42,011 bases of DNA. It comes from an uncultured Bacteriovoracaceae bacterium. GTDB lineage: Bacteria > Bdellovibrionota > Bacteriovoracia > Bacteriovoracales > Bacteriovoracaceae. Each line of letters starts with the position of its first letter. Positions within the stretch are counted from its first letter, which is position 1. This document shows, in pieces, positions 695-14,275 of the stretch. Made by a program: the position numbers and the translations under genes. The DNA is taken from positions 1 through 42,011 of the forward strand of contig CAXGUD010000033.1 of NCBI GenBank assembly GCA_964012805.1, given 5' to 3'. Below the pieces are notes generated by a model. The model was not told where the DNA came from. It searched no databases and saw only the letters and a list, made by a program, of their open reading frames with translations.

Positions 695-719
695 ACCGGG
701 GTCTACCATGGACCCTGGT
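695..719. terminator. Hairpin between convergent genes, probable terminator
   Basis: accggggtc-taccatg-gaccctggt (9-bp stem with one G-U on +), followed by ctcttcttt on + and tttgg on -; lies between stops at 685 and 740. Confidence 0.55.
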
Positions 720-739: not shown

Positions 740-1918
740 TTAAACAAGACTCATCTCAAAACCTGGAGGAACTTCGCCAACAATGGGCATCGCACTATCC
801 TTTCCAGCTTCTTTTCTTCTTTGAACAAGAAACAAAGACAATAACGTGTCATGTTTTATATAACCTTTTAAATCATCAATAGGAGTTCCTTCAAAAGCAC
901 AGTAGGAAAGGGCATGATAGTCTTTTGATATCGGGAGACCATAAATATACTCGATCATGGAAGTGAACAGCATGGATTTCTGATCTTTTGGTAAGGATCC
1001 TTTAAGCTCCAAGAAATTAAGGTATAAAACCTCAAGCTCACCACCCTCTTTAGGTGACTTTTTAAAAACTTTCTGGAGTTGAAAATATAATTTTAGAAAA
1101 GGCTGAAGCCTATCTATTTTAATTTTTTTTGAAGGAGAAGGAGTCCATAAGAGAGTGAGACCGACTATTTTATTTTTTGAATCTCGTGCCAAAATAAAAT
1201 TTTCTAAAAGGAGGTTATTCCACCTTTCAATTCTAAAGTTCAATTCGTCAAATTTTTCCTCAAAGCAAAACCCGAAGGACCTCTCTCTATTTTGATTCCT
1301 CAAAAATTCTGTTATCGCATCCTTATCCTCCATAGAACCTCTAGAAAATTTGACTCCCTCGATCCTTTTTTTAAAAATATTAGTTAAGTAATGACCAGGG
1401 TGTCGAAGCAAAATATTAACCATCTTATATTGAACAAGTGGAAAGTACTGAAAAGGATTTTTTTTATTATAAACAAGAGCATTCATTGCCTTTTGATTTT
1501 CTCTTAAAATACTCGTATAAAAAAACTCACACCCCCCAAACTCCTCTATCAAGTGGGCATGTTCTACAAGATCACCATAAAATTTTCTCCATATGACGCT
1601 AGCGCGTGGTCCAGGTTGAATTCTTAGATCACCCAAATAGCCAACCCACTTTTTCTCCCCTTTTATAAAACCTGGCCTTAAAACCAATGTTCCTACGCCG
1701 CAAATCCCAGCCTCTTTTTTAAGCCTCACAAGAAAAACAAAAAAAAGTGGCCCACAAAAAGATAAAAATTTAAAGAAATCAGGTTTCCGATCATAACTTA
1801 TCGCTGTTTTAGTGCCTTCCATTGGTAAAGTGGAAAAAAAAGAAAGAATTTCTTTATTGTCTTCTTCTGTGGCCAAGGATACTCTAGGATGCTTTAAAAA
1901 AAGATCATTTAATTTCAT
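740..1918 (-). CDS. GNAT/N-myristoyltransferase-like fold protein, putative acyltransferase
   Basis: RLAT-like start (SLATEED), motif A-like GYLGDLRIQPGPR, FYTSILRENQKAMNAL; size fits a tandem GNAT fold; GGGAGG RBS upstream. Confidence 0.6.
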   Translation of the reverse strand: MKLNDLFLKHPRVSLATEEDNKEILSFFSTLPMEGTKTAISYDRKPDFFKFLSFCGPLFFVFLVRLKKEAGICGVGTLVLRPGFIKGEKKWVGYLGDLRIQPGPRASVIWRKFYGDLVEHAHLIEEFGGCEFFYTSILRENQKAMNALVYNKKNPFQYFPLVQYKMVNILLRHPGHYLTNIFKKRIEGVKFSRGSMEDKDAITEFLRNQNRERSFGFCFEEKFDELNFRIERWNNLLLENFILARDSKNKIVGLTLLWTPSPSKKIKIDRLQPFLKLYFQLQKVFKKSPKEGGELEVLYLNFLELKGSLPKDQKSMLFTSMIEYIYGLPISKDYHALSYCAFEGTPIDDLKGYIKHDTLLSLFLVQRRKEAGKDSAMPIVGEVPPGFEMSLV

Positions 1919-1942
1919 TAAGTTGGCCTCCCGGACCTCTTT

Positions 1943-3016
1943 CTAAATCCAAAAGGAGATTTCTTTTTTACCCTCGTAACTCATTAACTTAGAATCTCCC
2001 TTAACCCCATAATGACGAAGCCTTTCAATTTCTTTATGAACCTCATCAGCTTCCGTGGAACGGAAAGTTGTCCTAAAATCAGACCTTAAACAATCTCCCT
2101 GATTTTTCATAATAACTGTATCCTGCTCAATCACTTTTCTTGTATAAAAAGAAATAATTGGTTTAAAAAGCATTCCAAAAAGAGGGATCTTATAGGCAAT
2201 ATAAGTGTAAACCCGACTTTTTAAAGTACTTACAGGAGATATCTGGGAGTTAATGATAAAACCATTTTTTGAACCAAAATTATAATCAACTCTAGTCAAA
2301 TTAGGCATAATAAATTGATCTGTATGAGTCATAGGATGTCCACCTGGGTTTAAAAGCATCTTGGCACCCCAGCTAAACTCATCTTCCTCTTGAAAATATG
2401 TAACCGTTACAGCACCATTTTTAGTTTCAACAACTGTAGGAACTTTCTTTGGTACGGCTTTTTCATCTCTAAACCAGCCTCTATGGACAAAAATAGTATG
2501 GGGGACATCAACAAAGTTTTCGGCAAGATTTGTGACTTCATTTTCAAAATCAGTAATCATAAAATAGCTAATCCAATCGGGGTTTAAAGCCTCTGGAAAC
2601 CTCCAGGGAGGTGTAGCAGGACATGGAACATCAGTATTATTATCACTCGGGCCCATCCAAACCCAAATGGCACCATCTTGTTCTACGCATGGAAATGATT
2701 TCAACTTTAAATTTTGGGAAGGCTTACTTTCTGGTCCCTCAGAGGGAACACAACTTACCTGCCCCGTATGATCGTACAGCCAGCCATGGTAGGGGCATAC
2801 TAACTCACCTTTAAAGACCTCACCCTTTGATAAGAATGCATGCCTATGAAGACATCTATCGTTAAGACAAGAGACCTTGCCATCATTATTTCTAAAAAGA
2901 ACGAGGGCCGTATCATATAAGGTCCTCTGTATAGGTTTTTTACCAACTTCCCTGCTTAAAGCAGCTATATACCAATTTTTTAAGAGCAGGCCATCCCTTT
3001 CCGTCAAAGATTTCAT
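1943..3016 (-). CDS. Rieske non-heme iron oxygenase alpha subunit (VanA/KshA/PaO-like)
   Basis: Rieske ligands CLH...CPYHGW; mononuclear Fe motif ENFVDVPHTIFVH; C-terminal VIEQD. Confidence 0.92.
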   Translation of the reverse strand: MKSLTERDGLLLKNWYIAALSREVGKKPIQRTLYDTALVLFRNNDGKVSCLNDRCLHRHAFLSKGEVFKGELVCPYHGWLYDHTGQVSCVPSEGPESKPSQNLKLKSFPCVEQDGAIWVWMGPSDNNTDVPCPATPPWRFPEALNPDWISYFMITDFENEVTNLAENFVDVPHTIFVHRGWFRDEKAVPKKVPTVVETKNGAVTVTYFQEEDEFSWGAKMLLNPGGHPMTHTDQFIMPNLTRVDYNFGSKNGFIINSQISPVSTLKSRVYTYIAYKIPLFGMLFKPIISFYTRKVIEQDTVIMKNQGDCLRSDFRTTFRSTEADEVHKEIERLRHYGVKGDSKLMSYEGKKEISFWI

Positions 3017-3028
3017 TGAGCTAACCCT

Positions 3029-4618
3029 TTAAAGGTTGTTAACTTTTGTCAAAAGATCAATCTTTATATCCCCTTCGACCATTCCGGATTTTTTTTTCAG
3101 GTCTAAATAATAATCTGTAGCAGCTGGGAAAACTTTGACCCTCAGATGACCTAATTGGTTCAGCTCTCGAGCTAGTTTGTAATGAAAATGGTTCAGTAAG
3201 GCTTCTTCACCTCTTTCCTCCAAACTTTTTATTTCATCCTTTTCTAACTCCTCTCCTTGAAATAGTGCAAGGTAAAAAGGTCTCTCTTGACCATTTTGAA
3301 CCCCCAAAAGAGAAACAGGCTTTTTCTTATCAACACCTAGAGACTCGAGTAGATTCCTGGCCACCTCCTCACCCATTTTTTCACCAACCATGTCCAGTCC
3401 CTCAACCCGTCCCTGGAAAACCAAAGATAAAGGTGATGAGACACCCTTTTCAACCCTCAATTCGTCTTTCAAATGATACCTTAAAAGTCCATTTCCTGCG
3501 CTTATCAAAGGCGAAACCCTCATTCCCACCTCAAGCTCCCATGCAGGAATGACTTTTCCCGAATCTAGAGAAAGAAATTCATAAAAGTGACTACGATATG
3601 CAAGTGTATAATCCCCGCGAAAAGGGATTGTCACAACTCCTTCTGTTGCGAAAAGTCCCTTCCCCTGAATATAGGTGCGTGGGAAAAGATCTTGCAGCTT
3701 TTTTGCATAAACTGAAGAAGTCCCTGTGTCCCAACAACTAATAAGCGATAAACGTGGCCAAAGCTTCAATAAATCTTCTGAATTAAGCTTGTCCTTAAAG
3801 CTCTTCAAAAGAAAAGCAGACTCTTTATCTTTTATCGGCTTAACCGACTCCAGATCAGAACTGAACTCTTCCCAAGAACCCTTTTCAAGCATTGAAATAA
3901 TCAATTCCCGATTGGACATCATAAACTCAATAAGTTCGAGAAAAAATGTAGGCCCCCAAATAAAAATAAAGGTTAAATTCCTAGCAGTAACCAAATAAAC
4001 GCATGTAGCCAATCTGGACGCTTCCACTGTGTTTGCCAAAGTCACAGAAGGTGGAACACACAAACATTTTCCGATGAGCCAACGATGGAGAGTAGGAAAA
4101 TAAGAAAGGTCATCATTGGTCCGCCCTTTTCCCCTCATATTAGTTGGCAACCAAGAAAGTGACCAATAATGATCTCCTTTACCAATCTCAGGAAAATTCT
4201 GAAAAAGGTCAAAAAGCCATGGGAAAATAGCACTTTTAAACTCATCCATCATAGATTGAGTATAAGGAATCCATTTTTCTTTATGAGAGCTCCCGCTTGT
4301 AGGCTGATAAAGGAAAGGCTTTTCTGCAAAAACACGCTCACCACTTTTTTCCCTCTCAATGAAATCTAGCCAATCATTGTATTGACTTGGCCCAAACGCC
4401 TTGACGAAAAAAGAGTAGCCTACTTGACCCTTAGAGTTAAATTTTCCTGCGAACTCTGTTTGTTTTAGTCCGTCACACAGTTTATTTAATTTTTTTTCTT
4501 GGACTTTTTTAAGGCGCTTAAAATTGCTTCGAAAAAGAAAGTAAGAGGGAAAAATGGCCAACTTCAAGAGCGGCACAATAAAAAACCTCAAAAAAGCTTG
4601 CCGGAAAAATCGTTTCAT
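3029..4618 (-). CDS. GH3 family (acyl acid-amido synthetase-like) protein
   Basis: PTSGSS..KWIPYT P-loop, GKGLFATEG (YxxSEG-like), HFYEF, GLLRYHLKD (GLxRYxxGD-like), FQGR...DMVGEKM. Confidence 0.85.
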   Translation of the reverse strand: MKRFFRQAFLRFFIVPLLKLAIFPSYFLFRSNFKRLKKVQEKKLNKLCDGLKQTEFAGKFNSKGQVGYSFFVKAFGPSQYNDWLDFIEREKSGERVFAEKPFLYQPTSGSSHKEKWIPYTQSMMDEFKSAIFPWLFDLFQNFPEIGKGDHYWSLSWLPTNMRGKGRTNDDLSYFPTLHRWLIGKCLCVPPSVTLANTVEASRLATCVYLVTARNLTFIFIWGPTFFLELIEFMMSNRELIISMLEKGSWEEFSSDLESVKPIKDKESAFLLKSFKDKLNSEDLLKLWPRLSLISCWDTGTSSVYAKKLQDLFPRTYIQGKGLFATEGVVTIPFRGDYTLAYRSHFYEFLSLDSGKVIPAWELEVGMRVSPLISAGNGLLRYHLKDELRVEKGVSSPLSLVFQGRVEGLDMVGEKMGEEVARNLLESLGVDKKKPVSLLGVQNGQERPFYLALFQGEELEKDEIKSLEERGEEALLNHFHYKLARELNQLGHLRVKVFPAATDYYLDLKKKSGMVEGDIKIDLLTKVNNL

Positions 4619-4637: not shown

Positions 4638-4663
4638 AAAAAAAAAGCCCCATCCATGGGGCT
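4638..4663 (-). terminator. Intrinsic terminator of the HU gene
   Basis: Minus strand AGCCCC-ATGGAT-GGGGCT followed by a T run, about 40 nt after the HU stop. Confidence 0.8.
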
Positions 4664-4979: not shown

Positions 4980-5191
4980 AAAGCCTCCAACCTTCTTAAT
5001 TTAAAATGTTATTAATTCAAGAACAATTATAGTCAGCTAAATTTCTTAAAGACAATCATTTTTTTAAGAAAAAACTAAGATTTTGAGCCAATAAAAGCAT
5101 AATTGAGATATAAAAATAAAAGGATAAAAAAAAGAATAATAGAAAAAACTAATTAAAATAAACTTTTTACATTTTTCCGAATAATTTAGCC

Positions 5192-5891: not shown

Positions 5892-6224
5892 TTGAAGATA
5901 AGTATTGAGGTTACCGAAAACAGAAATATCTTTATCGTTGAAGGAGAGGTAGATTCGTTTTCAATTTCTCATTTTATCCAAGAGTTAGAGCTTCTTGAAA
6001 AAATAAGCGGCCAAAAAATTGTTATCGACCTCTCCAATATGAAATCAATAAATTGGCGCGGGCTATTAATTCTTTCAAGGAAAATTTTAGAAGCGAAAGT
6101 TAGGGGTGATGAATTTACTCTGGTCTGCAAAGACCAAGAAATCAAGGAAACTCTAACGCTTTTTACTCATCCCATGCAACTCTCTTTCTTCCCAACGTTG
6201 GAGGACCTTCTTGTATCACTTTAA
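5892..6224 (+). CDS. STAS domain (anti-sigma antagonist-like) protein
   Basis: VEGEVD, KIVIDLSNMKSINWRGLLIL, FFPTLEDLL follow the SpoIIAA/RsbV pattern; overlaps the next gene. Confidence 0.8.
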   Translation: MKISIEVTENRNIFIVEGEVDSFSISHFIQELELLEKISGQKIVIDLSNMKSINWRGLLILSRKILEAKVRGDEFTLVCKDQEIKETLTLFTHPMQLSFFPTLEDLLVSL

Positions 6225-7647
6225 TTTATTAAAAAAAATTATAAATTATTTCATTGCTTTTATTTTTGTAAAAGTTCTAATATTAAGTAATCATAATTGC
6301 CTGGCTTCAGATTCTAAAAAAACCAATAAATTAAAAAGAGTTCCATCATATAGCTTTAAATTCTTTCACGATCAGCTTTTACTGACAAATGATGAGCTGA
6401 AAATGAAGAAAAGAGACCAGATTTTGGCCGAAGAAAACCTCACCGTTTCAAAGTCTGGTCATTATCCCAAATTGGATTTAAAAGTTGGTGTCAACGGGGG
6501 CAGTGAACAAGAAGCCAGTTCATCCAGTGTAGATCCATCCGGAGGTGCTGGTAAAATGGGTCTTTCCGGAGGCTCAGAGGGTACTTCCAACTACAAGGTA
6601 AATTCTGATTCAATATCCGGAAGCTTCGGTCTTACTTATAATATTTTTTCAAGATTTGCGACACAAAATTCTGTTTTGAATGCACGAAATGGAGTCAATC
6701 AAAAGTTATTAGAAAGAGATATATTATTAGATCGAAAAAAAAAGGAACTAATCCACATTCTTCTTGAAATGCAGGCCTTAATAAAGGTAAAAAAAGTTTT
6801 ACTGAGAGCAGAGAATTTATTAGAACGCCTGGCCTTAAAAAGTAGAAATAAAACAAGAAAGCTTTTTTTTGGATCGAGCAGGGGTCTTAAAATTGATAAA
6901 AAATACAAAGAAATCCTTTTCCAAAAAGCAAAAGTTACAGAATATATTCATACAGGCCATTTGGCCCTTAGAAACTTAATCCCTCACTACAAGCAAAATT
7001 GGCTAAATGGCCTAAGAACTTTATCAATTACCTACAAACTCCCAAGTTTTGATTATGCCTCGAAAAAGTATTTAAAAAGGTCAAAAAAATCTAAGAACCT
7101 TTCCTTGGATATTCAAAATTACAAGAATATCCATAATACAACCACATGGGAAAGAGCTTGGATTCCCCTGGCCTTTTTATCTGCAAGTCAGACTACAACA
7201 CAGTCATTAAAGACAAAGGAAGTTTCTAATGGCTGGAGCGCTAGCCTAGTTTTCCAGTTCAATTTATTTGATGGTTTCTATTCGAGCGCAAGAAGATCAC
7301 AAGCCTTTAATATGTATAAAATAAGCAAAATAAAAAAAAGGGATCAACTTTCTAAAGGTATTGTTCTTTTAAGAAAAGATTATGCCCAGATAAAAACATC
7401 GTTACAAAAGAAAATTTTCATCCAATCTATTATAAGAGAAAAGAGATTTAAAATAAAAAATTTAAAAAGAATACGCGAAAGAGGTGTCTCTACTAAAACT
7501 GAAGAAAGTTTTATGCTACTTGAGTTAGCCAAAAAAGAATTGGATAAAAGAGAGGCCCAGAAAGATTATGAAATAGCACTTTTAAATATAGCTACCAATA
7601 TAGATGAATTAAATAAGGTAAAAATAAATGAATCAACAACCCCATAG
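6211..7647 (+). CDS. TolC family outer-membrane efflux protein
   Basis: Signal-like N-terminus, HYPKLDL, SFGLTYNIF, WSASLVFQFNLFDG, RGVSTKTE, long helical segments; adjacent to adaptor and RND genes. Confidence 0.8.
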   Translation: MYHFNLLKKIINYFIAFIFVKVLILSNHNCLASDSKKTNKLKRVPSYSFKFFHDQLLLTNDELKMKKRDQILAEENLTVSKSGHYPKLDLKVGVNGGSEQEASSSSVDPSGGAGKMGLSGGSEGTSNYKVNSDSISGSFGLTYNIFSRFATQNSVLNARNGVNQKLLERDILLDRKKKELIHILLEMQALIKVKKVLLRAENLLERLALKSRNKTRKLFFGSSRGLKIDKKYKEILFQKAKVTEYIHTGHLALRNLIPHYKQNWLNGLRTLSITYKLPSFDYASKKYLKRSKKSKNLSLDIQNYKNIHNTTTWERAWIPLAFLSASQTTTQSLKTKEVSNGWSASLVFQFNLFDGFYSSARRSQAFNMYKISKIKKRDQLSKGIVLLRKDYAQIKTSLQKKIFIQSIIREKRFKIKNLKRIRERGVSTKTEESFMLLELAKKELDKREAQKDYEIALLNIATNIDELNKVKINESTTP

Positions 7648-8329
7648 ATCATTCAAATCAATATTATTTTTAATGTCTTTTTTCTTTATGACAATCCTAT
7701 TGTTTTCTAACAAAGTAAAAGCAGAATCACTGAGAGAGTTGATACCATCTTATGGAGTTATAAAACCAAAATTTGTTTCCACACAGGTCGCCATAGGAAA
7801 CGGCATAGTCCACAAAATTAGGTATAAACTAGGTGATAAAGTAAACCGGGGAAAAATTCTCATCAGCATCATTGAAAGGGAAACTATAAGAAATTACAGA
7901 AATACACTTAAAGGTACTGTTGCAAAAATTCATGTCACCCCAGGAGCAGCAATAAGTGCAGGTATGCCACTTGTTACGATTGTGAATTCTGATAAGAAAT
8001 ATATGGAAATCGCTTTTTCTCCAGACGAATCAAATAAAATATCCAGAGGTTTGAGTGTTTTGTCTCAAAATAAAAATGTCAAGATTGGAACAATTAACAG
8101 ACTCTCTCCAATTGTTGATCCAGACACAGGAACTGTCCTTTCATTTGTAGATCTTAAATCCTTTGGAAGACCTTATCGAATTGGTGAAGTCCTTCCTATT
8201 TTCATTGAGGGTAAAATAAAAAAATGTAAAAAGGTTATAGGTTTAAAAGAGTTAGGACTTTATACAAATGGTTACAAAGTCAATTTCATTGCAGGGGACA
8301 AAGTTTGCTTGGAAGGCAAAGCACCCTAA
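7628..8329 (+). CDS. RND periplasmic adaptor (MFP) lacking the alpha-helical hairpin
   Basis: Lipoyl half-motifs GIVHKIRYKLGDKVNRGKILISI and GTVAKIHVTPGAAISAGMPLVTI; beta-barrel motif GTINRLSPIVDPDTGTV; only 233 aa. Confidence 0.8.
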   Translation: MNQQPHRSFKSILFLMSFFFMTILLFSNKVKAESLRELIPSYGVIKPKFVSTQVAIGNGIVHKIRYKLGDKVNRGKILISIIERETIRNYRNTLKGTVAKIHVTPGAAISAGMPLVTIVNSDKKYMEIAFSPDESNKISRGLSVLSQNKNVKIGTINRLSPIVDPDTGTVLSFVDLKSFGRPYRIGEVLPIFIEGKIKKCKKVIGLKELGLYTNGYKVNFIAGDKVCLEGKAP

Positions 8330-8360
8330 ATAATAATCTATTTTAAAAGAACTTAAGACT

Positions 8361-11318
8361 ATGGTTCAAGCATTTATTAAAAAAGGGGTTTTTACTATTT
8401 GTTTAAACCTCCTCATTCTTTTAATAGGCTATTTTACAATACCTAAGCTCTCTAACGAATTTATTCCATTAGTTGAAGTTCCTGCAGTTGCTGTAGTGAT
8501 TCCCGCTCCCACCATGAGTGAAGAAAATATAAAATATAATATTGTTTATCCTCTTGAAAAAGCTCTTCTTCGAACTGGAGAGCTGAAATCAATTGAAGCG
8601 GACATCGAAGAAGGGAAAGCTGTTTTTAAGCTTTTTTATAAGTGGGACTTCCTACCAGAAGAGTGCCTAAGAAAAGCAAGACAAACTGTTGAAAACTTAT
8701 CTCTTCCTGACGGTGTACTGGACCCTATCTTTGTTTTGTATAAACCCAGTAATAACCCAATTCATAGAGTCGTCTTTTATGGTCTTAATATAGAATCACT
8801 CTCTTCACATGCCCTAAAGATAAAAAGTAAAGTTGAAAGAATACCTGGCATCTCAGAGGTCTTGATCGCAGGACAGTACCTTGGAAAAACCTATGTAAAT
8901 ATAAAAAATAAAAAGCTTTCTCAATACCAAGTTAGCTCTCAAAACATTATTGACGAGGCTTATAATACATGGAAACTTAGAAAGTTTTATAAAGGATTTC
9001 CCCTCAACCACACTCTTTCTTTGCCTATAAAAAAACCAGAAGACATGAAACTCCTCCCCATATTAAACTATAAAAATGATCACATATATTTGAAGTGGAT
9101 AGGAGACATCACCAAACCACCAGGAAAGCCCCAAGTTATTTATGGAAGGGAAAAACCCGCCGTTGTTTTAGAAATTATAAAATCGGCAGGTGCCGATACA
9201 ATTTCAATTATAAATAAGTCTAAAAAGATAATTGAAAATTATAAAAATCCATCTATCCAAACTGAAGAAATATATAACGAAGCAATTAAAATTAAGGAAA
9301 GTCAAAATGGAGTATTTACAAACTTCTTCATCGGAGTTGTTTTAAATTCTTTAATTCTTATGATATTTCTAGGCTCCACAATTGGGGTATTGGTTGCTTC
9401 TGTAGTTTTCCCGACGGCACTTCTCGGTACATTTTTTACAATGGATCAATTAAGCATTTCAATAAACCTTTTTAGCCTGAATGGCTTTTCTTTAGCTGTT
9501 GGAATGATAACTGATGCCTCCACAGTTGTTTTAGAGTCTATAACTCAAAGAATAAATAGAAAAGAGCCTCTGTTTATGGCGTGCTTGAAAGGGGTTAAGG
9601 ATGTCAGTCTAGGGGTTTTGGCTTCTACTCTAACAACAGCAGGAGTTTTGTTACCAATAGCCTTTCAAAAAAATGTCTCTAGCAAACTTTTTTCAGACCT
9701 TAGTCTTACTGTTGTTTCCACCCAGATTTTCTGCCTTATCGCCGTTTTTAGTCTGGTACCATGGCTTTGTTTCAAAATGTTAGGAAAAAACACCAAGGCT
9801 CCTTCTTTAATCTTTTACCTTTTTAAAAAATCGGACACTCTGGTAAAAAGTATGATCAATCTGGCAAAAACCACTCAAAGCTTTTGCCGAAAAAAAGTAT
9901 TCTTTCGCCTTGTTATTCCTGGTATAGTTATCTTCCTTAGTTTAGGTTCTGTTGTTTTTTTACCAGATATGGAGTTTCTACCGCAGGTATCATCCCGAGT
10001 TTATTCATTAAAATATCCAATTAATTCATCTCGACAAAGCGTGGAAGGAATTGAAAAAAGAGATTTGATGGCCAGTACATTAAAAGACTGGAAAGAAGTC
10101 GTTTGGTCGGTTTCATCGTTTAGCAAAAACACAGTAGATATACTCTTTTCACTAAAAACCTCCAAATCTATTGAACAAATTAAAGATAAATTTAAAGGAA
10201 AAAACTTAATTTTTGAGAAAATAAATATATTGCCAGTCGGACCAGCTCCATCCGGAGAAGCCTATGGATATGATGGTCTCTACTTTATAAGCCAAAACTT
10301 ACCAGATGATAAGATTTCTAAACTCATCCAAAGTTTTTGCAATAGTAAAACCGTCAGTACTTGCTTAGGGCCTGAGTTTACCAAAAGTTATAACTTTCAT
10401 CTAAGCCCTGATCATTTAACAACCTACAGAATGGGCATATCAACATATCATGGTCTCAGCCAATTTTTTATTCCCTTACAGGAAATTGACTTATCATCAA
10501 TAGCCGACTTTGAATTTAAAAACCCATCAATTATGAAGATATCCTTTGAAAATTCTTTATTAGACTTACCAATTATCAACTCTAAAGGCGAACGAAACGT
10601 TATAGGAGATCTCTATAACCATAAAGTTGAGAAGTATGACACCATATTAAAAAGAAAGAACGGGGATGACTTCTTTCCACTATTTTTTAAACTCAAAGGA
10701 TCAACAATTGGATTAGCCGATAGTAGCATGAATTCAATTAGGCAAGGATTAGGCATAAAAGAGAAGAAAATTATTGGTATGGGAACTCTTGAAACAATGA
10801 ATGAAAGCTTTGGAGGACTCATAACGGCCCTTACAATTTCGGCATTTATTGTTTTTATAATACTGGTAATACAATTTAATTCTATCAGGCAAGCTTCCGT
10901 CATTATGGGTACAATCCCACTTACTCTTGGTGGTGCTATTGGTGGACTCATTGTAATGGGTGAAACAGTAAATGCAAGCGTTTTAGTTGGATTCATTCTT
11001 CTTATTGGAATAGTCGTCAATAATGGGATCTTTTTAGTCGAGGCAACCAACCAAAAGCTTTTTTCTGGAGGCAGTAAGGTCGATGCCATCGATTGGGCAG
11101 TATCGAGTAGAACAAGACCTATTTTAATGACCTCATTTTCAACAATCTTGGGAATGTTGCCTACTTTAATTATTGGTGGAGAAGGCTCAGAATTATATAG
11201 AGGTATGGCCATTGTAAATGTTTTTGGGATGATAACAGGAACATTTCTTTCCATCGTTGTCACGCCTATTTTTATAGAATATTTAGGTTTACCGAAGAAC
11301 ATTAGTAAGGGACGATAA
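8361..11318 (+). CDS. RND efflux transporter permease (AcrB/AcrD/AcrF family)
   Basis: 985 aa with two large periplasmic loops; TM4 AVGMITDASTVVLESI, TM10 GIVVNNGIFLVE, TM11 RTRPILMTS. Confidence 0.93.
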   Translation: MVQAFIKKGVFTICLNLLILLIGYFTIPKLSNEFIPLVEVPAVAVVIPAPTMSEENIKYNIVYPLEKALLRTGELKSIEADIEEGKAVFKLFYKWDFLPEECLRKARQTVENLSLPDGVLDPIFVLYKPSNNPIHRVVFYGLNIESLSSHALKIKSKVERIPGISEVLIAGQYLGKTYVNIKNKKLSQYQVSSQNIIDEAYNTWKLRKFYKGFPLNHTLSLPIKKPEDMKLLPILNYKNDHIYLKWIGDITKPPGKPQVIYGREKPAVVLEIIKSAGADTISIINKSKKIIENYKNPSIQTEEIYNEAIKIKESQNGVFTNFFIGVVLNSLILMIFLGSTIGVLVASVVFPTALLGTFFTMDQLSISINLFSLNGFSLAVGMITDASTVVLESITQRINRKEPLFMACLKGVKDVSLGVLASTLTTAGVLLPIAFQKNVSSKLFSDLSLTVVSTQIFCLIAVFSLVPWLCFKMLGKNTKAPSLIFYLFKKSDTLVKSMINLAKTTQSFCRKKVFFRLVIPGIVIFLSLGSVVFLPDMEFLPQVSSRVYSLKYPINSSRQSVEGIEKRDLMASTLKDWKEVVWSVSSFSKNTVDILFSLKTSKSIEQIKDKFKGKNLIFEKINILPVGPAPSGEAYGYDGLYFISQNLPDDKISKLIQSFCNSKTVSTCLGPEFTKSYNFHLSPDHLTTYRMGISTYHGLSQFFIPLQEIDLSSIADFEFKNPSIMKISFENSLLDLPIINSKGERNVIGDLYNHKVEKYDTILKRKNGDDFFPLFFKLKGSTIGLADSSMNSIRQGLGIKEKKIIGMGTLETMNESFGGLITALTISAFIVFIILVIQFNSIRQASVIMGTIPLTLGGAIGGLIVMGETVNASVLVGFILLIGIVVNNGIFLVEATNQKLFSGGSKVDAIDWAVSSRTRPILMTSFSTILGMLPTLIIGGEGSELYRGMAIVNVFGMITGTFLSIVVTPIFIEYLGLPKNISKGR

Positions 11319-11320
11319 AT

Positions 11321-11611
11321 ATGAAAGCCGTCATGCTGCTATTTGACTCCGAACTCGTCGAAGAGGCACTCTTAATGATAAGGGTGTCCAACATCCAGAA
11401 CTATACACACTTTACAGGACTTCATGGATCCTCTAAGGCCGGTAAAAAAGAAGGTTCTGCTGCTTGGCCAGGAACCAATGAAATTATTATGATTCTTTTA
11501 GATGATATTAGTCTTAAAAAGTTAAAAAAAGTTATTGGTGATTTTAAAATAAAGCACCCAGGAAGACCTCTTCTCTTTTTCAATTGGCCTTTGAGTGAGG
11601 TAGTTATCTAG
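11321..11611 (+). CDS. PII-like transporter-associated small protein (resembles the PG0541 family)
   Basis: MKAVMLLF...IQNYTHFTGLHG....GKKEGSAAWPGTNEII matches the PII-like pattern seen next to RND genes; 96 aa. Confidence 0.7.
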   Translation: MKAVMLLFDSELVEEALLMIRVSNIQNYTHFTGLHGSSKAGKKEGSAAWPGTNEIIMILLDDISLKKLKKVIGDFKIKHPGRPLLFFNWPLSEVVI

Positions 11612-14275
11612 ATGTTAAAGTTTCTTCAAAAAGTTGCAGAATATAGAAGGATTGTTTTAGTTTTTCTTTTTGTGCCCATAGTTGCTGTTTTTTTAAACTT
11701 TTCAAAGGGTCTTAGTTTTTTTCCTGAAGATAGTTTTATAAGATTTAAAATAGAGTTTTATGTTCCCAGTAAGATAAGCTCTGAAATCGAAAGAAAAGTA
11801 ACGACTACCGCCGAAAAAACTTTCAACGGCTTATCTAACTTAATTTCAATTGAATCCTTAACAAGACATGAAAGATCCGAAATAAACCTTATATTTGATA
11901 GGCTAAATGATCCAAACAAAATTCTTCTTTTTATTCAGGAGAAACTTGATCGATTAAAAATAACACTACCTGGAGATGTCAAACAGATTAAAGTCACCCA
12001 CTTAAAGCCACTTCCTCCACCAGATTTTAAAATAAATACAAATACTGGTTTTGATTTAACAAAATTCCAAAATTATATAAAAAATTTAGGTGCATCTATA
12101 AAAAGAATTGAACCAGAATTAGATGAAGACATTAATTGGAAAATACAACTTAATCCAAAAAAGCTTTTAAGCTACAACATTTCTATAAATCAGATATGGC
12201 ACTCTTTAAAAATAAATGGCTTCGCCTCCCGCTTAGGTTCAAAAGATGACTTAAGTTATTTTGTTGAATCAAACTTCCGCTCTCTTCTTCAATTAAAATC
12301 CACCATTATCGGTTCAAAATCCAATACTCCTATCAAACTTGTTGATATTGCAAGCATTAAACTTATCCCCCCTTCCGCACCTAGAATCATAAAGATATGG
12401 TTTAACAATGAAAGCACTAGTCTTAATAAAGTTAGTAATGAAATAAAAAAGTTATTCCCGTACGTTAAAGTTGAAAGATCGAGAACAAAGCTGTGGATCT
12501 CATTACTAAAAAAGCCCTTACTCTTTTTTAGTATTTTTACAATAATTTCTTTTCTTGTATTTTATTTTGTTTTCAAGGACATTAAAGCAGCAGGAAGTTC
12601 TCTTATTTTTAATTTTGGATTTTTTATTCATTACCTCTTCTGGTGCTTTATATTTAAAAATGGCATTACAATACTTGATTTTTATTCACTAATTTTAGGT
12701 CTTATTTTTGGCTCTTTCTTATGGCTGGTGCTTCTTAGTAAAATTAGGAATTCCTTTTATCACAAAAATAAAACTGGATTAAAAATAACCGTTCAGCAAT
12801 CAATACTTTTTGCTCTTTCAGAACTTATACCAACTTTTTTGATTTTATTTACTTTATTTTATCTATTTTCGCTCCCAACACTTTCTAATACCATCAGTCT
12901 ACCCTCTTCAAAAATTTTAAATCATTTTTTTTCAATTGCGATTCCAATCATATTCTATTTTTTAACTATTTTATCAGTTTTCAGTCCTTTAAATTGGGCA
13001 ACGAAACAAGGCCCCGAAAAAAAGCCCACCAGGCTCTTTTCAAGAAATGTATTTATTCCTCCACTCATTGTTCTTTTTATTCCAATTAGTATTTATTTTT
13101 GGCCTTTAAAGCCTTTAGGTATGAAGGACTTTAAAAGTGAAGAGAAGGTTTTTATTTCAAACCTTTCCCTATACAGAGGTCACCAAAATGCTCTTACATA
13201 TCAAAGCAAGCCTTCAGACACACCAAAAAATTACAAGTTAGTTCCTGAAAAGTTTTTGGAAAAAGAATGGGTAAATCAATGGGAAGTTACACCTAATGGA
13301 CTTCGGTCACTTCCAAATTTAGACATTTCTAGTTTTAAATTGGCGATGGAGGATATCCAACAGGAAAAAAGACTCTCCTTTTTTAACTATATAGATGATC
13401 AAATTGAAACATCAATTCCTATAAAACTTAATCAATTAATATTAGATGAAAGAAATTTTTCTCACCTTCTTATTGGCAGCAGGACCCCTGGAGAAAAGCC
13501 AAGTCACCTGGGGCATATTGCAAAGAAAACTATTGTTACAGTCCCAAAACTTATATTTCATGAGCAAATTAATCGAGTTAATCAATTTTACTTTAAGGAT
13601 TTAAATAAAAACCAATCTAACTTTTTAGAGACCCCAAAAAATGATGAAACGTTTAAAGAAACATCCCTCACTAGGTTCTGGAGAAAACACCATAAAAACT
13701 TCATCAAAGACCACCTAACTTCATTTATATTCATCTTTACATTTCTTTCACTTTATATGAATTCGTTCTATAGAGGATGGATTATAACAGCTATTTGTTT
13801 GGCACAATCTGGGTTATCAAGTGGAATACTTTATTTACTAAATGATGTTATACCACTTGATACGATGTGGCTTGATAATCTGCCGCAATGGCTTTCAGTG
13901 GCCGTCATTTTGCTTCTCACTAGGCCTATGGACTTAGAAAGAGTTAGAGGACTAGATATTGAAGTTGCCCTAAAGAAGCTTAAAAACTTCTACGCTCGCG
14001 CTATTTTAGCCGCATTATTTCTCTTTTCTTCAGGCCCCATTATTCTAGGCCTTCTATCCTCTTTTAATAACGATCTTATTCCACTATCCAGCCTATTTAC
14101 CCAGTCATCTCTTTTTATTGGAGCCCTAACACTTATTTTAGGCCTTATAAGCTACCGCTTTCTTTTTTTCAGTTTTTACATAAGTAGCGAGAAATCTATT
14201 GATAAAATGAGCCTTTTCCTTTTAAAAACCTTTTATAAAATAAAAAATAGTCGGAAAAATAAGGCAAAAGCCTAA
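11612..14275 (+). CDS. Highly diverged RND-like membrane protein (second subunit)
   Basis: PN1-like SEIERKVTTTAEKTFNGLSNLISIES...SEINLIF, KITLPGDV, IQLNPKKLLSYNISINQI, PIKLVDIASI; 1+5/1+5-type hydrophobic layout; proton-relay motifs missing. Confidence 0.72.
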   Translation: MLKFLQKVAEYRRIVLVFLFVPIVAVFLNFSKGLSFFPEDSFIRFKIEFYVPSKISSEIERKVTTTAEKTFNGLSNLISIESLTRHERSEINLIFDRLNDPNKILLFIQEKLDRLKITLPGDVKQIKVTHLKPLPPPDFKINTNTGFDLTKFQNYIKNLGASIKRIEPELDEDINWKIQLNPKKLLSYNISINQIWHSLKINGFASRLGSKDDLSYFVESNFRSLLQLKSTIIGSKSNTPIKLVDIASIKLIPPSAPRIIKIWFNNESTSLNKVSNEIKKLFPYVKVERSRTKLWISLLKKPLLFFSIFTIISFLVFYFVFKDIKAAGSSLIFNFGFFIHYLFWCFIFKNGITILDFYSLILGLIFGSFLWLVLLSKIRNSFYHKNKTGLKITVQQSILFALSELIPTFLILFTLFYLFSLPTLSNTISLPSSKILNHFFSIAIPIIFYFLTILSVFSPLNWATKQGPEKKPTRLFSRNVFIPPLIVLFIPISIYFWPLKPLGMKDFKSEEKVFISNLSLYRGHQNALTYQSKPSDTPKNYKLVPEKFLEKEWVNQWEVTPNGLRSLPNLDISSFKLAMEDIQQEKRLSFFNYIDDQIETSIPIKLNQLILDERNFSHLLIGSRTPGEKPSHLGHIAKKTIVTVPKLIFHEQINRVNQFYFKDLNKNQSNFLETPKNDETFKETSLTRFWRKHHKNFIKDHLTSFIFIFTFLSLYMNSFYRGWIITAICLAQSGLSSGILYLLNDVIPLDTMWLDNLPQWLSVAVILLLTRPMDLERVRGLDIEVALKKLKNFYARAILAALFLFSSGPIILGLLSSFNNDLIPLSSLFTQSSLFIGALTLILGLISYRFLFFSFYISSEKSIDKMSLFLLKTFYKIKNSRKNKAKA

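Follow-up and report, generated by a model that had tools for sequence, protein, structure and literature searches.

Within a 42,011-nt stretch of DNA from an uncultured Bacteriovoracaceae bacterium (contig CAXGUD010000033.1, assembly GCA_964012805.1; the whole stretch is hereafter the window), three adjacent genes encode a predicted GH3-family ligase, a Rieske oxygenase, and a tandem-GNAT protein that we call X3. This trio is one piece of a dispersed module of at least five co-occurring genes, which is found whole in other genomes. Judging from sequence and gene neighborhood, the module would make, with no need of the usual assembly-line enzymes, an oxidized, multiply acylated amide lipid for the envelope or for export, a reading to which we give a probability of roughly 55%. 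The original prediction had seen in the trio a compact cassette that activates, oxidizes, and acylates, making or inactivating an N-acyl amide, an aminolipid, or a signal molecule; an N-acyl amide or aminolipid as product stays the best reading, but the compact trio does not hold. The three genes are the following:

740..1918, minus strand, 392 aa: X3, predicted acyltransferase with tandem-GNAT/N-myristoyltransferase (NMT) fold
1943..3016, minus strand, 357 aa: Rieske non-haem iron oxygenase alpha subunit, VanA/DdmC/SxtT type
3029..4618, minus strand, 529 aa: predicted GH3-family acyl-adenylating ligase

All three are intact and co-directional, with intergenic gaps of 12 and 24 nt and with the GH3 and Rieske motifs preserved, just as had been described from the sequence.

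The most constant partner of the GH3 gene lies outside the window. It is a protein of ~260 aa, here called S263, which neighbor clustering identifies as the commonest GH3 neighbor. Among 401 genomes of the phylum (Bdellovibrionota) searched with a GH3 profile, 115 match at E ≤ 1e-10. S263 is present in 73 of the 401, as a rule in single copy. At a GH3 cut-off of E ≤ 1e-37, 72 genomes carry the GH3 clade and 71 carry both GH3 and S263; at E ≤ 1e-57, S263 is found in all of the GH3-positive genomes (56 of 56). S263 belongs to no Pfam or NCBIfam family, and sequence and profile searches against solved structures return nothing significant for it. Its structural model (pLDDT 94.5) consists of one GNAT fold that carries an insertion; the first domain of X3 is related to it. 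A distant homolog (~19% identity, profile E 2e-33) is encoded in Azospirillum brasilense (L173:7464-8831), within a 16-kb region in which no GH3 was detected.

We compared 61 loci, namely 60 regions at the stronger GH3 matches (58 genomes, with a few near-duplicates skipped) and one earlier locus. A Rieske gene of at least 43% identity lies near GH3 in 29 of the 61, with X3 within ~9 kb in 23 of these Rieske-type loci and encoded elsewhere in the other six. Co-occurrence of the trio in other genomes, which had been proposed as a check on the original prediction, is widespread: the three genes are contiguous and co-directional in 18 of the 29 Bdellovibrionota loci, nine times in the order of the window and nine times as Rieske-X3-GH3. 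Neighbors of the Rieske-type loci are of lipid type and include a desaturase or fatty-acid hydroxylase (21 loci), MMPL (19), and PAP2 (9).

The Rieske gene is a variable add-on of the GH3 module, not an invariant part of it. From 454 GH3 relatives confirmed in metagenomes, the best 80 were kept and three near-copies of the window left out, giving 77 loci, many of them on redundant contigs; X3 lies near GH3 in 71 of these and this Rieske in only 6, and 65 of the 71 loci without this Rieske nonetheless carry X3. In the type represented by the window, the GH3-S263 core is accompanied by the Rieske, an RnfD-like/FG-GAP fusion (described below), desaturases, PAP2, and MMPL. Other types combine the core with membrane fusion protein (MFP)/RND and HxxxD condensation-like proteins, as in the Rieske-less metagenome type (MFP in 51 of 71), with several B12 radical-SAM genes, or with AurF-like di-iron proteins. 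Loci of the AurF type (L143-L165, e.g., L150, L152, and L165) contain two AurF/ferritin-like proteins, several other Rieskes, a ferredoxin, a fatty-acid hydroxylase, and a hexapeptide-repeat transferase, with no X3 nearby, and form a GH3 clade of 15 loci.

Outside the phylum, the range of X3 was drawn from plasmid-collection records, metagenome contigs, and the names given by their sources. Burkholderia arboris carries S263-X3, followed by a desaturase and then by GH3 with a Rieske of 38% identity adjoining it. On a Citrobacter portucalensis plasmid, S263-GH3-X3 is accompanied by B12 radical-SAM genes, PAP2, and a desaturase. The arrangement in Acinetobacter baumannii is HlyD-MFS-S263-GH3-outer membrane factor-X3. 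Going by gene order and locus numbering only, this operon (NZ_CP104448.1, L021:6626-13990) could correspond to AmfAB (A1S_1772/1773) in PMC10812440 and could include the TolC-like A1S_1769, which lipoprotein-trafficking stress induces (PMC11784087). The part of PMC5997985 available lists an A. baumannii GH3 gene among the uncharacterized interaction neighbors of an efflux channel. No description of the module was found in the literature searched, which took in few subscription papers.

The Rieske protein consists of a Rieske domain and a VanA_C domain. Residues C55, H57, C74, and H77, which we take to be the cluster ligands, and D170, H173, H178, and D299, presumably the mononuclear iron triad with the bridging Asp, are invariant in 24 of 24 sequences. 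Its best solved relatives, DdmC (E 1e-26) and SxtT (9e-23), align over the N-terminal half only, and all 13 NCBIfam matches fall far under their cut-offs. No reductase gene adjoins it, and neither a reductase nor a ferredoxin partner is among the frequent neighbors of the 29 Rieske-type loci; ferredoxin-like genes occur elsewhere in this genome.

Closely tied to the Rieske is a protein in which an RnfD-like membrane domain is joined to FG-GAP/UnbV_ASPIC repeats, either fused or, in some loci, split. Of the 29 Rieske-type loci, 24 have it near GH3, versus 1 of the 32 others, and for the remaining 5 of the 29 it is encoded elsewhere in the genome; it is thus present in all 29 genomes with a Rieske (at least 43% identity) near GH3. 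A further 33 genomes include five with the full fusion, and four of these are exactly the four with a Rieske of at least 48% identity; the fifth (G299) has neither a GH3 nor a Rieske match. Scored as an RnfD, the fusion reaches 35.7 bits versus an NCBIfam cut-off of 207, and hence is termed RnfD-like only. At 25-28% identity, it also matches genes that lie side by side in Streptomyces plasmid clusters and are annotated "CRTAC1" and "enediyne biosynthesis protein". A 200-aa membrane protein tracks the Rieske type as well, being found with a single-protein query in 13 of 20 versus 0 of 10 genomes.

In the genome of the window, these and further members are scattered over other contigs:

C44:19835-23532: S263 GNAT and RnfD-like/FG-GAP fusion, paired
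C1:231988-232590: 200-aa membrane protein
C2:33941-37722: two B12 radical-SAM genes and a second Rieske
C6:62299-64111: two desaturases

The scattered genes best match one intact cluster (L111), at 66, 71, 48, and 49% identity, and the C2 genes and one C6 gene are closest to their counterparts there. S263 and an RnfD-like/FG-GAP protein are encoded in all 29 genomes with a Rieske near GH3, in this genome, and in both same-genus genomes. Because S263 (71/72) and the RnfD-like/FG-GAP protein (29/29) lie on C44, outside the window, the trio is not self-contained, and the compact cassette originally envisaged has to be given up: the most constant partners of GH3 and Rieske are on C44, and the Rieske itself is variable. 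That the trio might still be a complete stand-alone cassette is very improbable, even though 18 of 29 loci have it contiguous and in one direction and same-genus relatives carry it by itself at this locus, since every Rieske-near-GH3 genome also encodes the two partners and since, in split clusters, the Rieske can travel with X3, S263, and the RnfD-like/FG-GAP protein and not with GH3 (G097, G227, and G387).

Further genes of this genome were considered as members and rejected. A polyamine link (speD/speE beside the C6 desaturases), an OlsF-like acyltransferase on C1, and a hydrolase near S263 on C44 all lack a match in the fetched GH3 loci, and a search of this genome for an OlsB-type gene (PF13444) gave none. 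A separate lipid locus on C1 (C1:88219-96724, L168) encodes a fatty-acid hydroxylase, MMPL with a 482-aa partner, and an OlsF-like O-acyltransferase domain, and continues with a CrtI-like oxidoreductase and genes resembling a ketosynthase and an acyl carrier protein (ACP).

The GH3 protein scores 109.9 bits with PF03321 (curated cut-off 23.6) and retains the nucleotide-binding motifs PTSGSSxxxK (106-115), GKGLFATE (319-326), and GLLRYxxxD (377-385). The positions T107-S108-G109..K115, T325-E326, and G377..R380-Y381..D385 are invariant in 40 of 40 sequences, including the essential serine of motif I; the tyrosine of motif II is missing. These motif roles were mapped by eye onto the motifs in the available part of PMC12493201. 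A family profile matches solved plant GH3 structures (AtGH3.15, GH3.6, GH3.5, GH3.12, and JAR1; E 2e-17 to 5e-9), and the single sequence finds no plant GH3 among solved structures at E ≤ 0.001. The profile recovers 954 proteins at E ≤ 1e-10 among 7997 candidates scored, a family size based on word-indexed searches. In a FastTree phylogeny of 101 GH3 sequences, from which near-duplicates and truncated loci were removed by hand and which does not include the characterized bacterial GH3 enzyme OlsH, the efflux type and the AurF type each form a well-supported clade, and backbone support is weak. A viral scan gave one distant GH3, with no partner genes.

A second GH3 domain in this genome belongs to another clade and is 23% identical to that of the window. 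It is part of an 891-aa fatty-acid hydroxylase-GH3 fusion (C5:48779-51454, minus strand) beside an FMO-like monooxygenase, and weak GH3 matches occur in open reading frames of similar length (~850 aa) in other genomes of the phylum. On a plasmid of Streptomyces sp. SGAir0924 (L024:1-11587), a distant GH3 lies directly 3' of genes for a type I polyketide synthase (PKS), a P450, an aminotransferase, and a dehydrogenase, where it possibly closes an amide in a polyketide.

Structure prediction gives X3 two GNAT domains in one chain, forming a tandem fold across its whole length. N-myristoyltransferases are the top Foldseek matches, with 8-12% identity for structural matches, and the earlier guess of a GNAT/NMT fold from sequence is thereby borne out. 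By sequence, no NMT appears among the Pfam matches of 61 members or in the solved-structure searches, and sequence and profile searches of X3 against solved structures yield no match at E < 0.04. R99 and N141 are invariant in relatives, and in 61 of 61 relatives the chain ends at a constant distance of four residues past an acidic one (residues 390-392 of X3 itself have pLDDT <50). NMT and Eis use their C-terminal carboxylate as base. The Foldseek ranking and the fixed C-terminal position could also indicate that X3 is a true NMT-like protein acyltransferase and that the module lipidates a protein or peptide, for instance the FG-GAP membrane protein, an explanation we consider a long shot. A GTDB-wide scan with the single X3 protein gave only one close relative. 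X3 paralogs without GH3 nearby are encoded in this genome at C4:42516-44477, after a 215-aa gene without assigned function and before an RND gene, and at C107:1861-2976. Similar X3 copies stand beside an HxxxD condensation-like gene in G017 and G006, the latter also with a desaturase.

The presence of two GNAT-fold proteins implies further acylation or amine supply, and the MMPL, RND, or MFS neighbors imply export of something hydrophobic. On the amide-lipid reading, GH3 would adenylate a fatty or other carboxylic acid with ATP and then join it to a small amine as an amide, in the manner of OlsH, while S263, its near-obligate partner, would make or acylate the amine. X3 may add a further long acyl chain from acyl-coenzyme A (acyl-CoA) or acyl-ACP, with the fixed C-terminal carboxylate serving as base. 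The Rieske would hydroxylate or otherwise oxidize the product jointly with the membrane RnfD-like/FG-GAP protein; desaturases and radical-SAM enzymes could decorate the chain or head group, and MMPL, RND, or MFS proteins could export the product.

Several observations weigh against this reading. At E ≤ 1e-10, a cut-off that admits other GH3 clades, S263 is found in only 72 of 115 genomes; the E ≤ 1e-37 cut-off that yields 71 of 72 was picked after viewing the data, the related genomes are not independent, and the GH3 and S263 profiles were built partly from the same loci. Rieske kin of the VanA type include catabolic demethylases (best solved match DdmC). Desaturase-type neighbors also occur in 20 of 32 loci without this Rieske versus 21 of 29 with it; being equally common without the Rieske, they have no specific tie to the trio. 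For the MMPL of this genome and its partner, similarity to the cluster families is weak (20-30% identity), and the genome yielded no PAP2 belonging to the cluster family; a PF14378 search was uninformative, as 11 of 14 controls gave matches. Finally, a GNAT fold reveals neither donor nor acceptor, and the canonical CoA-binding loop is degenerate in both S263 and the X3 of the window.

Alternatively, the same chemistry could yield a bioactive small molecule that is secreted, such as a signal, antibiotic, or surfactant, in place of an envelope lipid. The core is tightly linked to MFP/RND in the Rieske-less type and to HlyD-MFS-outer membrane factor in A. baumannii, the fusion matches the Streptomyces genes noted above, a more distant GH3 lies in a Streptomyces PKS cluster, and tailoring genes differ widely among loci. 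We nevertheless regard such a molecule as unlikely: no carrier protein, PKS, or nonribosomal peptide synthetase is among the frequent annotated neighbor families, MMPL and PAP2 neighbors point to lipids, and the genes are scattered on several contigs yet all kept, which fits a role in cell structure at least equally.

A further alternative is a catabolic or detoxifying module, in which an external acid (aromatic or prey-derived lipid) is conjugated, acylated, and oxidized for inactivation or export. The closest solved Rieske is a demethylase, and the named relatives of the window GH3 include those in Oleispira, Oleiphilus, Thalassolituus, and Oleibacter, which are hydrocarbon degraders. According to the available part of PMC12493201, hormones and auxinic herbicides are conjugated by plant GH3 enzymes. 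The frequent annotated neighbors of the Rieske type, however, include no ring-cleavage enzyme, uptake system, or reductase; B12 radical-SAM pairs and desaturases are building enzymes, and the core is kept without any oxygenase in most metagenome loci. Catabolism or detoxification therefore seems improbable to us, and the synthesis of an amide lipid remains our preferred reading.

The surroundings of the trio contain the following signals and genes:

4646..4663, minus strand: terminator-like hairpin with U-tract, immediately following HU and ending 27 nt ahead of the GH3 start codon
4704..4979, minus strand: gene for HU, a bacterial histone-like protein, directly upstream of the trio and in the same direction
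5026..5055, minus strand: sigma70-like promoter match TTGTCT-18-TATAAT, upstream of HU
695..719, plus strand: hairpin between X3 and a convergent gene at 2-685, folding better on the convergent neighbor's strand

The hairpins reported on both sides of the trio do exist, but both are probably the neighbors' terminators, the upstream one that of HU, and the region shows no enrichment of terminator-like sites (6 versus 6.0±2.8). The hairpin at 4646..4663 is kept in the close relatives aligned, and that at 695..719 is possibly bidirectional. The promoter scan lists no match between HU and GH3; upstream of the trio on the minus strand, no consensus match is closer than 5026..5055, whose TATAAT is preserved in 5 of 5 sequences of the alignment (two being near-identical). 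Hence, read-through from HU is the simplest inference for how the trio would be transcribed in this genus; HU is not a pathway gene and would be a possible source of such transcription. Elsewhere in the window (6211-14275, plus strand) lie genes for an outer membrane factor, an MFP, and two RND proteins, with response-regulator and STAS genes ahead of them; the two RND genes are separated by a 96-aa gene that has no Pfam match and is P-II-like by eye. This RND system was rejected as a pathway part, being divergent, separated from the trio by three genes, and not adjacent in G002.

X3 shares its two-GNAT fold with N-myristoyltransferase, MAB_4324, a clostridial glucosamine N-acetyltransferase, Eis, and MshD, at 8-12% identity. 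Unlike the VanA, DdmC, and SxtT Rieskes, the Rieske here has no reductase alongside and is linked to the RnfD-like/FG-GAP protein. The fusion on C44 has UnbV_ASPIC, FG-GAP, and RnfD-like domains, which presumably correspond to E4 and E5 (UnbV and UnbU) of the enediyne cassette. Relative to the enediyne E4/E5 genes the fusion is joined into one, in reverse order, and 25-28% identical, and no iterative PKS or DUF1702 gene is among its frequent annotated neighbors. The enediyne core, according to the available part of PMC10760148, derives from PKSE, a thioesterase, and E3, E4, and E5. We entertain, as a doubtful extension, a widespread, carrier-protein-free system for acyl-amide lipid assembly, in which a core of GH3 and an obligate GNAT takes on lineage-specific tailoring blocks and the Rieske, with the enediyne-protein-homolog fusion, performs an unusual oxidation of a fatty-acyl chain. 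If true, enediyne core-cassette homologs would act outside polyketide clusters, predatory bacteria would hold a new class of lipid or natural product, and simpler versions of the assembly system would exist in Acinetobacter and marine Gammaproteobacteria. A Serratia proteamaculans plasmid (NZ_MT039191.1, L172:2051-16920) carries a type II PKS/fatty-acid-synthase-like cluster with DUF1702, VCBS-repeat, and RnfD-like genes, that is, enediyne cassette homologs without an iterative type I PKS.

The closest functional precedent is OlsH of the planctomycete Singulisphaera acidiphila, a bacterial GH3 that forms N-acyl-ornithine from free fatty acid, ATP, and Mg, with activity confined to extracts given free fatty acid; its biochemical and genetic characterization, in the available part of PMC12493201, stands against the earlier remark that little functional work on bacterial GH3 proteins was known. 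OlsH is the only biochemically characterized bacterial GH3 found in the literature as far as available, and those who described it anticipate that other bacterial GH3 enzymes form different N-acyl compounds. The orders listed with OlsH homologs (at least 30% identity and 70% coverage) in the part of PMC12971839 available name none of the Bdellovibrionota. Compared by eye, the window GH3 resembles OlsH in length (529 versus 526 aa) and in having three nucleotide-binding motifs, and an ATP-dependent fatty-acyl amide followed by a second acylation would be expected as for OlsH/OlsI. Motif II differs, however (GKGL[WF]ATE here versus TYPCSE in the OlsH report as available), as do the partners: two GNATs, the Rieske, and the RnfD-like/FG-GAP protein here, and the alpha/beta-hydrolase OlsI and methyltransferase OlsG there, with no OlsI-type partner in the trio or among the frequent annotated neighbors.

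A second large clade of GH3 proteins is defined by the module and occurs in 72 of the 401 genomes of the phylum. Because its partner set is defined, its product can be sought directly with a mutant and lipidomics, and expressing the window trio alone would probably fail, as a different contig carries the two partners that are most constant. The presence of this core in the uncharacterized A. baumannii efflux operon may explain that pump's cargo. Unlike the plant enzymes, the window GH3 belongs to a bacterial multi-enzyme module, which by this comparison appears to be a variant of GH3-based amide synthesis with a set of partners that is new relative to OlsH.

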